Made by a program: the position numbers and the translations under genes. Of a stretch of DNA of 16,660 nt, positions 9,657 to 10,725 are shown one piece after another; within the stretch, counting starts at the first letter, position 1, and every line of letters starts with the position of its first letter. The stretch is from a virus (taxonomy: Duplodnaviria > Heunggongvirae > Uroviricota > Caudoviricetes), in the IMG/VR virus record IMGVR_UViG_2728369188_000006, positions 1-16,660 of that record; one strand, written 5' to 3'. A model generated the notes under the pieces. That model was not told where the DNA came from, ran no database searches, and worked only from the letters and a program-made list of their open reading frames with translations.

Positions 9657-9683
9657 GGGGAGGGCTTAGCCCTCCCTCTTTTT
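9657..9683. terminator. Rho-independent terminator hairpin shared by the convergent adhesin and esterase genes
   Basis: GGGGAGGGC-TTA-GCCCTCCC stem-loop (9657-9676) followed by TCTTTTT on the plus strand. It sits 12 nt after the adhesin stop and abuts the esterase stop (9682-9684). The minus-strand side has a weaker T-rich tail. Confidence 0.6.
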
Positions 9684-10725
9684 ACAGGTTAGCGTTTGGG
9701 TTTTGTTGTTGGGGAGCTGTTTTTATAGGCGCTCCCAGGTTTTTAGTAAACCACTCAACGACTCTGTTTATAATAATTGGCTGATACCATGTCTTATCGC
9801 CATGCTCGGCCCCTTCTACCAGCACGTACTCAGCGTTATCGCCGTTCTTCTTCAACATCCTGAATAGTTTGGCGCTTTGCTCAGGTGAAACCAGAGTGTC
9901 TTTGCTACCATGCATAATAAGAAATGGGGGTTTTACTCCTTTCATATGTCCGATTGGACTGGCGTTTAGCGCTTTTTCTTTTGACGCTGTGATGGGGGCT
10001 CCCGCAAAATTTCTGAATGCAGGGCCATTGATCATTAAGGCTTCGGTTACGGCAGGAGAGCGATGAACCTCCTGCACTGATTCAGGGAACCCCTCGCCAA
10101 TATTCAACAAGTCAGAAATCCCATAAAGTGTGGCAACTGCCTGAACATCTGAGGATTGCTGAAGAAAGTCACCTTTATCAAAGGTTTTGTCACCATTTGT
10201 AGTTCCCATCATCTGAGCAAGCCATCCACCGGCAGAGTCACCCAGAACTCCGATTCTTTGAGGATCAATCCCATAATTGCTGGCATGCTCTCTCAGGTAA
10301 CGTATTGCAGCTTTTCCATCCTCAACTGGTGCTGGAAATGTATCAGGAATTGTTCTGTATTCTACAGCGGCCACAACAAAACCAGCTTCTGCCAGAGCCA
10401 TTCTCATTTCAATAAATTTGTCATGTTCAGAAGACATGAATCCGCCGCCGGGATAATAAATAATGGCTGGTTTTAAATCATTTGTTCGCGGGACAAGAAC
10501 TGACATGTGAAGCTGTCTGACAGAACGAGTTCCTTTTATCTGGGAATAAACAACATCACCAATGAGATCGACTTGGTTTCTGGTCGGTGAAACACTAATG
10601 ATATCTGCACCCGGGGTGTAACCAGGAAGATTAGTCTGGACAGGTGTTGCACAACTCCCGACCGACATGGCCATTGACATACCATACAATAGTGTTGCAG
10701 ATGATAATATCTTGTTAATTTTCAT
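9682..10725 (-). CDS. Secreted, probably lipoprotein, alpha/beta-hydrolase esterase/lipase (hormone-sensitive-lipase-like family IV), 347 aa
   Basis: Contains PGGGF (HGGG-type oxyanion region), the GDSAGG nucleophile elbow, and downstream Asp (HGSKDTLV) and His (GAEHGD) candidates in canonical order. The N-terminus MKINKILSSATLLYGMSMAMSVGSC looks like a signal peptide with a lipobox-like Cys. Confidence 0.8.
   Translation of the reverse strand: MKINKILSSATLLYGMSMAMSVGSCATPVQTNLPGYTPGADIISVSPTRNQVDLIGDVVYSQIKGTRSVRQLHMSVLVPRTNDLKPAIIYYPGGGFMSSEHDKFIEMRMALAEAGFVVAAVEYRTIPDTFPAPVEDGKAAIRYLREHASNYGIDPQRIGVLGDSAGGWLAQMMGTTNGDKTFDKGDFLQQSSDVQAVATLYGISDLLNIGEGFPESVQEVHRSPAVTEALMINGPAFRNFAGAPITASKEKALNASPIGHMKGVKPPFLIMHGSKDTLVSPEQSAKLFRMLKKNGDNAEYVLVEGAEHGDKTWYQPIIINRVVEWFTKNLGAPIKTAPQQQNPNANL

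Follow-up and report, generated by a model that had tools for sequence, protein, structure and literature searches.

What is the enzyme that a lambdoid prophage of Escherichia coli encodes convergently to a large adhesin gene, where would it act, and on which esters? The locus lies in a stretch of 16,660 nucleotides (nt) from a Caudoviricetes record (IMG/VR IMGVR_UViG_2728369188_000006, positions 1 to 16,660), which is called the window here. The gene in question occupies positions 9682..10725 on the minus strand and encodes a protein of 347 residues including a signal peptide. An initial annotation had taken the product for an esterase of the hormone-sensitive lipase (HSL)-like family with a lipoprotein-type signal. 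We find that it is very probably an exported esterase of the BD-FAE type that is carried as phage cargo. In genomes and phages the gene already bears the annotation alpha/beta hydrolase or esterase, and its family has been described; no mention or characterisation of WP_000700202 or of the esterase of phage 4A7 was found in the literature searched. New here are a correction of the family, the separation of the esterase from the adhesin, a lineage-specific lipobox and a substrate lead through linkage to a decarboxylase.

The best Pfam match of the protein is BD-FAE (PF20434), with an expectation value (E) of 5.7e-45 and a score of 153.9 bits against a cut-off of 26.8. The alignment pairs esterase residues 80–290 with profile positions 7–214, so that 208 of the 215 profile positions are covered. 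When the protein was used as a query, 2569 homologues were recovered with E ≤ 1e-5, and by these two measures the esterase match is no chance event. A weaker match to Abhydrolase_3 (81.3 bits, E = 1.1e-22) falls in the N-terminal half, and a match to Peptidase_S9 (E = 1.8e-18) falls in the C-terminal half, where residues 249–331 align with profile positions 125–211 of 213. The founding paper of the BD-FAE family described it as chimeric, with an Abhydrolase_3-like N-terminal half, a Peptidase_S9-like C-terminal half and a Ser-Asp-His triad (PMC8165983). The phage esterase has the same chimeric make-up.

The initial annotation named GDSAGG and PGGGF motifs in canonical order, and the reading frame has PGGGF first, at residues 92–96, and GDSAGG after it, at 162–167. 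PGGGF (P92-G-G-G-F96; 10438..10452, minus strand) is the putative oxyanion-hole loop. It is of the GGGX type, with Pro replacing the His of the HSL enzymes. GDSAGG (G162–G167; 10225..10242, minus strand) would form the nucleophile elbow, with Ser164 at 10234–10236, and it aligns with the solved structures 6nkf, 6mly and 6xyc. The predicted catalytic acid is Asp276 (codon at 9898..9900, minus strand), which lies in a peptidase-S9-type segment, HGSKDTLV, that aligns with the HGxxD of the same three structures. The predicted catalytic histidine is His308 in GAEHGD (codon at 9802..9804, minus strand), which is invariant and aligned with the solved structures. Ser164, Asp276, His308, Y90 and P92-GGG-F96 do not vary across 29 homologues of 62–97% identity. 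These alignments establish Ser164/Asp276/His308 as the predicted catalytic triad. With the triad and PGGGF invariant and the BD-FAE profile matched, the initial call of a serine esterase is upheld at the level of sequence.

The solved relatives found by sequence are 6nkf (E = 1.6e-37), 6mly (GH43-CE), 6xyc and 6tkx (both BD-FAE) and Thermogutta Est2. The BD-FAE-type structures rank above the classical HSL-family esterases, whose sequence match runs through the N-terminal half only. A model of the esterase was built with AlphaFold2 from an alignment of the 29 homologues (mean predicted local distance difference test, pLDDT, 77; predicted template modelling score, pTM, 0.79). A Foldseek search with this model recovers the sequence-based relatives in the Protein Data Bank in unchanged order. 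The match to 6xyc has E = 4.8e-17 with TM 0.63/0.76, and that to 6tkx has E = 8.7e-17 with a root-mean-square deviation of 3.6 over 273 columns. Structure prediction and active-site comparison, which the initial annotation had named as checks, agree with the enzyme class, since the modelled fold is BD-FAE-like and the triad motifs align with those of 6nkf, 6mly and 6xyc. Among solved structures, the nearest neighbours act on short-chain or carbohydrate esters and are not true lipases; Thermogutta Est2, a member of the family, is a general C2–C5 esterase.

The HSL-like label holds for only part of the protein. The N-terminal half and the GDSAGG elbow fit it, whereas the best family is BD-FAE. 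The HSL motif HGGG is absent; the esterase reads YYPGGGF, and Pro92 is invariant in the 29 homologues. All four curated HSL models of NCBIfam scored far below their cut-offs (LipP1, 78.8 bits with a cut-off of 350; GTSAG, 54.6 with 380; GESAG, 47.4 with 430; GCSAG, 32.2 with 410). The LipP1, GESAG and GCSAG matches cover the N-terminal half only, and the GTSAG match extends over residues 85–309. In the C-terminal half, the HSL family has DPLxD around the acid and HxF around the histidine. Neither motif occurs in the esterase, where HGSKDTLV and GAEHGD fit the Peptidase_S9 profile. Where an HSL-type N-terminal cap would be expected, the AlphaFold2 model places no more than a helix of 4 residues ahead of the first strand of the core, and residues 55–68 have a pLDDT below 50. 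On profile and motif evidence, the likeness to HSL enzymes is confined to the N-terminal half, and the protein belongs to the BD-FAE type, not to the HSL family proper.

The gene starts with ATG, and an in-frame stop lies two codons 5′ of it. A RefSeq coding sequence of identical length, WP_000700202.1, named ‘alpha/beta hydrolase’, is present in locus L001; a look-up of the exact window protein reported it absent from the protein collection. The ratio of non-synonymous to synonymous substitution rates (dN/dS) comes to 0.10 when the window allele is compared with an Escherichia sp. allele; the two differ at 32 synonymous and 12 non-synonymous positions. It is 0.05–0.09 between the window esterase and its decarboxylase-linked relatives, and approximately 0.1 for the phage-borne alleles. 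The esterase gene is intact and, by these ratios, kept by purifying selection.

On sequence comparison, the window is a degraded DLP12-like lambdoid prophage, and its first 14.1 kb are 99.98% identical to the E. coli chromosome NZ_CP033762. From the left, the order is a frameshifted integrase, insertion sequence (IS) elements, a frameshifted replication O gene, replication P, the adhesin and the esterase; to the right of the esterase follow ybcN, ninE, ybcO, rusA, ylcG, quuD and an OmpC/NmpC-like porin. This gene order places the esterase in a cargo slot between replication P and the ninB-like ybcN, antisense to the phage early genes. In K-12 the same slot is filled by the DLP12 cargo ybcL/ybcM. 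The gene has the marks of a moron, being variably present, antisense to the flanking phage genes and provided with its own terminator-like hairpin. It occurs in 681 of 5426 complete E. coli genomes (12.6%). Seven isolated lambdoid phages, represented by eight records, carry a copy at 98.3% identity (Lambda_4C10, 4A7, D2, 1W, 3W, Perceval and PhiR47_2), and the gene matches PHROG 3341, ‘esterase’. The stretch from esterase to porin (window 9678–14100) is 99.4% identical to phage 4A7, and homology ends at the terminator hairpin. These alignments show that the esterase travels with the phage block ybcN-ninE-rusA-Q-porin, independently of the adhesin. A more distant copy (72.9% identity over residues 32–330, apparently without a signal peptide) is present in the unrelated 57-kb E. 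coli phage PHB10 (MK524177.1), and phages have therefore acquired the family more than once. In a few E. coli genomes (e.g., NZ_CP145683 and NZ_CP060953), an IS3/IS600-family element splits the matched 1.7-kb region and may thus interrupt the esterase or the DNA upstream of it.

Does the esterase serve the adhesin next to it, as had been suggested? The adhesin gene (5737..9645, plus strand) encodes an inverse autotransporter of 1302 residues with an IAT_beta match and with Big_1/Invasin_D3 repeats. The convergent arrangement reported initially is correct; the stop codons of the two genes are 36 nt apart. Between them lies a G+C-rich hairpin (9657..9677) that has a terminator score on both strands and at which the block in common with phage 4A7 begins on the left. 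To the left of the esterase, phage 4A7 carries ren, emrE/qacE, a small open reading frame and a ybcK-like recombinase, and no adhesin. The adhesin–esterase junction is found in 440 of the 681 esterase-carrying E. coli genomes; in other carriers the 3′ flank of the esterase differs, and in some genomes the adhesin end is present but the esterase is missing. Adhesin and esterase thus occupy a cargo hot spot as neighbours that can be exchanged. Because phage 4A7 lacks the adhesin and the junction occurs in only part of the carriers, a functional tie between the two is unsupported. The suggested modulation of adhesin function loses its support as well, and the block boundary at the terminator adds to this.

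The signal peptide comprises residues 1–24 (10654..10725, minus strand), with K2 and K5 in its n-region, and homologues have signal peptides at the same place. The N-terminus reads MKINKILSSATLLYGMSMAMSVGSC, then ATP. Residue 25 is a cysteine (codon TGT at 10651..10653, minus strand) and a putative lipidation site, in a lipobox-like context, VGS|C, with Ala at +2. The PROSITE pattern PS51257 matches GMSMAMSVGSC together with its rules, which ask for Cys at position 15–35, Lys or Arg within the first 7 residues and no charge in the 6 residues preceding the box; here these are Cys25, K2 and K5, and an uncharged h-region. Cys25 is the sole cysteine of the protein. A 61-nt stretch around the TGT codon is found exactly in 677 of 682 E. 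coli records, and Cys25 is also present in the alleles of phage 4A7 and of cryptic-clade Escherichia. Whether a Tyr25 (TAT) allele, as in P0001 (a 90%-cluster representative), is common in E. coli was considered and rejected, as it had no exact match in the 682 records. Two other relatives, P0002 and P0004, have better lipoboxes (SAGC and STGC), in which the cysteine is shifted by one position towards the N-terminus. Among 80 species-level homologues, approximately 77 lack a lipobox cysteine; most of these have ordinary signal peptides ending in AxA, and a few have none. A clear lipobox pattern was seen in the Escherichia locus only, with two Klebsiella loci doubtful. As judged from these alignments, the lipobox is lineage-specific and not a family trait. 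The N-terminal export signal is well supported by its sequence features, and lipidation at Cys25 appears somewhat more probable than its absence. The lipoprotein-type signal of the initial annotation is thereby kept as an export signal with a PS51257 match at Cys25, and given up as a strict lipobox or a property of the family.

The C-terminal tail (residues 331–347; 9685..9735, minus strand) consists of a variable linker and a conserved terminal ANL, and AlphaFold2 confidence is low there. The last residue is Leu in 109 of 120 homologues, and 64 of the 120 end in ANL. The tail is absent from signal-less variants of 318 residues and from a Dickeya paralogue of 47% identity, and it therefore goes together with export. 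No sorting or secretion motif that fits it is known to us.

The substrate lead comes from the neighbours of the relatives. P0002 (79% identity) and P0004 (75%) are the closest signal-bearing relatives outside Escherichia, and both genes lie 16–33 nt 3′ of a phenolic acid decarboxylase gene (PF05870). In locus L004, a divergent LysR regulator stands beside the decarboxylase–esterase pair. In a neighbourhood scan of the esterase homologues (one genome per species, 80 loci), phenolic acid decarboxylase was the commonest Pfam family 5′ of the esterase. The top signal-bearing matches with an adjacent decarboxylase are from Erwinia tracheiphila, Serratia marcescens, Symbiopectobacterium and Mangrovibacter, and more distant ones are from Martelella, Azospirillum, Acinetobacter and Aeromonas. 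The pair of decarboxylase followed by esterase, with its gap of 16–33 nt, recurs in Gamma- and Alphaproteobacteria (among others in L004 7478–9047, L008 1315–2889 and L011–L013); no description of such an operon was found in the literature searched.

The names and habitats of the relatives point in the same direction. The Dickeya aquatica protein SLM61953 (P0068), 63% identical over nearly its full length, which is similarity of orthologue grade, is named ‘Ferulate esterase’, as is the paralogue SLM61950, with 47% identity. The Dickeya feruloyl esterases faeD and faeT have been placed in CAZy CE10 (PMC10319131). The founder of the BD-FAE family, encoded in a polysaccharide utilisation locus of Bacteroidetes, has both feruloyl and acetyl-xylan esterase activity (6xyc/6tkx; PMC8165983). 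Members of the family occur in plant-associated genera (Dickeya, Pantoea, Rhizobium and Sphingomonas) and in gut-associated ones (Sutterella, Parasutterella and Desulfovibrio). The decarboxylase linkage, the Dickeya naming, the spread of the family and the activity of BD-FAE therefore favour plant hydroxycinnamoyl or acetyl esters over host lipids. By analogy with these relatives, we put hydroxycinnamoyl and/or acetyl esters of plant origin at about an even chance as the substrate class. Host lipids, one of the substrates suggested initially, are not favoured, as the structural relatives are short-chain or carbohydrate esterases and the close relatives are linked to phenolic acid decarboxylase. 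Acetylated surface polysaccharide, the other suggestion, finds no specific support, and the enzyme might still act there.

Taken together, we consider it probable that the protein is an exported α/β-hydrolase of the BD-FAE/Dickeya ‘ferulate esterase’ type and a lysogenic-conversion cargo in the nin-region hot spot of DLP12-like phages and prophages. The Sec signal would export the esterase, and the E. coli/phage allele would probably be lipidated at Cys25. Ala at +2 of an E. coli lipoprotein directs sorting to the outer membrane by the Lol pathway, and the lipidated esterase may be sorted in this way. Ser164, activated by His308 and Asp276, would then attack the ester carbonyl. In GGGX-type α/β-hydrolases, the oxyanion is stabilised by backbone amides of the GGG loop; here those of the G93–G95 loop and of Ala165 would serve. 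The substrates may be small plant or dietary esters that arrive at the envelope, with feruloyl, caffeoyl, p-coumaroyl and/or acetyl esters as the most likely candidates (e.g., chlorogenic acid or esterified xylo-oligosaccharides). The phage copy appears to derive from an Enterobacterales decarboxylase–esterase operon of which the esterase was kept while the decarboxylase and the regulator were lost. As cargo it would benefit the lysogen and would not serve the adhesin.

Several observations speak against parts of this explanation. In the AlphaFold2 model, confidence is low near residues 95–99 and 232–244. The h-region of the signal is Ser/Met-rich and of modest hydrophobicity, VGSC does not fit the strict lipobox [LVI][ASTVI][GAS]C because of the Gly at position −2, and the close variants P0001 and P0005 have Tyr at the position of Cys25. 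A promoter scan gave no promoter-like site on the esterase strand, and its total was not above that of shuffled controls. The decarboxylase is adjacent in only 11 of the 80 homologous loci, and the remaining neighbourhoods are heterogeneous (MiaE, LysR and others downstream) and gave no further lead. Neither a decarboxylase gene nor a remnant of one was detected in the window by tblastn with two decarboxylase proteins or by blastn with L004 and L008. The 447-nt non-coding region 5′ of the esterase (10726..11172, minus strand; 41.8% G+C) accordingly holds no such remnant, and DNA homology to L008 begins only approximately 10 nt 5′ of the esterase ATG. No enzyme assay on the esterase, or on a relative closer than the Dickeya enzymes, was found in the literature.

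The alternative that survives best concerns localisation. The protein may not be lipidated at all, with signal peptidase I cutting after V-G-S24 to release a soluble periplasmic or secreted enzyme. The AxA-type signal peptides of most species-level homologues, the Tyr25 variants and the departure from the strict lipobox consensus would all be explained in this way. We hold it for the less probable of the two outcomes, since the PS51257 pattern and its rules fit, the only cysteine of the protein sits at this position in nearly every allele from E. coli, Escherichia sp. and phages, and the lipoboxes of two other close relatives (SAGC and STGC) are better still. It is unlikely that the enzyme is a promiscuous short-chain carboxyl-esterase that has no dedicated substrate in E. 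coli and is a passenger of a successful phage lineage. Such a passenger would fit the missing decarboxylase and regulator partners, the empty promoter scan, the heavily degraded prophage of the window and general C2–C5 esterases such as Thermogutta Est2 within the family; a passenger would hardly be expected to keep an intact reading frame with the 61-nt stretch identical in 677 of 682 records, to have dN/dS at approximately 0.1 between phage-borne alleles with 32 synonymous differences, or to be retained by infectious phages with small genomes. An HSL-like lipoprotein esterase that acts on host lipids or acetylated surface polysaccharides and modulates the adhesin or phage receptors (e.g., in superinfection exclusion) is improbable: lysogenic-conversion genes of prophages, such as this one, often change the cell surface, the BD-FAE founder deacetylates polysaccharide too, weak partial NCBIfam matches to the pectin acetylesterase PaeX and to acetylxylan esterase were seen and the adhesin adjoins the esterase in most carriers, but 4A7 lacks the adhesin, the adhesin end occurs in some genomes that lack the esterase, the block boundary falls at the terminator, neither esterase nor adhesin matched a PADLOC defence model, the closest relatives lie on the chromosomes of plant- and gut-associated bacteria and not in surface-glycan loci, and the structural neighbours include no true lipases.

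The rest of the window fits its description as a decayed prophage. According to the RefSeq annotation of the near-identical locus L001, the integrase and replication O genes within 1–5487 are frameshifted, and an IS110-family ISEc21 transposase sits within an IS3-family element. Homology to NZ_CP033762 and phage 4A7 breaks at window position 14100 and resumes in tail-fibre DNA (14100–14763); a deletion has therefore taken the lysis genes along with the bulk of the structural ones, which leaves the prophage defective. The OmpC/NmpC-like porin frame (13235–14218, minus strand) has 327 residues as against 360 in NZ_CP033762. An Rfam scan found no RNA family within the window.

The adhesin itself is a separate, exchangeable module. 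Six inverse autotransporters of E. coli were described by Goh et al. 2019 (FdeC, YeeJ and IatA–D; PMC6714894), and the adhesin agrees with none of these in size. It matches PHROG 7803 and 16344, which are phage families of unknown function, and the spacer 5′ of it (5488–5736) has 30% G+C. It looks like an uncharacterised phage-borne module that substitutes for the ren-emrE-ybcK of phage 4A7. Within the gene, a near-perfect tandem duplication of approximately 355 nt (7041–7394 and 7397–7751, plus strand; 97–98% identity) encodes two nearly identical Ig-like repeats (‘VSTADSSFTLDGDSSPTISADGQ...KVQGKTFTL’). It is likely a site of repeat-number variation or an assembly error.

We know of no gene for chlorogenic-acid hydrolysis by human faecal E. 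coli. As a tentative proposal, less probable than the envelope esterase set out above, the gene may encode a phage-transmitted hydroxycinnamoyl (feruloyl/chlorogenate) esterase, so that lysogeny would let approximately one in eight E. coli strains, prominently of the ST131 type, free ferulic or caffeic acid from dietary plant esters in the gut. A review (PMC10340781) cites Couteau et al. 2001 for the hydrolysis of chlorogenic acid by three E. coli strains from the human gut. The esterase is a testable candidate for this activity; if the proposal is true, it would be the determinant of the strain-variable hydrolysis of this compound by human faecal E. coli, and an unusual case of lysogenic conversion for dietary polyphenol metabolism. 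With the substrate right, a temperate phage would be spreading a hydrolase of plant esters through E. coli of the gut and of extraintestinal sites, and phage carriage would be tied to the handling of dietary phenolics, with a simple gene marker for an activity that until now is known only as a phenotype of strains. If the enzyme is a general esterase only, the outcome is ordinary annotation. In both cases the proposed functional link to the adhesin falls away and the family assignment is corrected.

Several known systems can be set beside the phage esterase. The classical HSL-family enzymes (EstE1, 2c7b; EST2, 1evq; E. coli Aes, 4krx) share the GDSAG elbow, the upstream GGG loop and homology in the N-terminal half. 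They conserve the His of HGGG, whereas the phage esterase has Pro at this position and peptidase-S9-type C-terminal motifs. Lip_vut4 (6nkf), a ‘lipase’ from a goat-rumen metagenome, is the closest solved structure both by sequence (approximately 31% identity) and by fold; unlike the phage esterase, it lacks the lipobox and the C-terminal ANL tail. Nothing published about its substrates turned up in the literature searched. The BD-FAE founder is approximately 26% identical and reads YGSAWF where the phage esterase has YPGGGF; it comes from a Bacteroidetes xylan locus, whereas the phage gene sits in a coliphage genome and its esterase activity is predicted only.

The Dickeya FaeD/FaeT-type enzyme SLM61953 has the same motifs and a signal peptide, and it ends in Leu (...GARL) at the position of ANL. 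The Dickeya genes are chromosomal, one of them beside a LysR regulator, and their signals are of the signal-peptidase-I type, whereas the E. coli esterase is phage-borne and has a lipobox-like Cys. No LysR/faeR-like regulator gene adjoins the esterase in the window, and nothing on FaeR was found in the literature searched. In 2011 Hassan and Hugouvieux-Cotte-Pattat reportedly described FaeD as a ferulate-induced enzyme that leaves the cell through the Out type II secretion system. In its genetic setting the esterase resembles the envelope morons of lambdoid phages, lambda bor (a lipoprotein moron) and lom, which are likewise small variable units in a cargo hot spot that encode an envelope protein. 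The two lambda genes specify serum-resistance or adhesion factors, whereas the phage esterase would be an enzyme from a family of plant-ester hydrolases.

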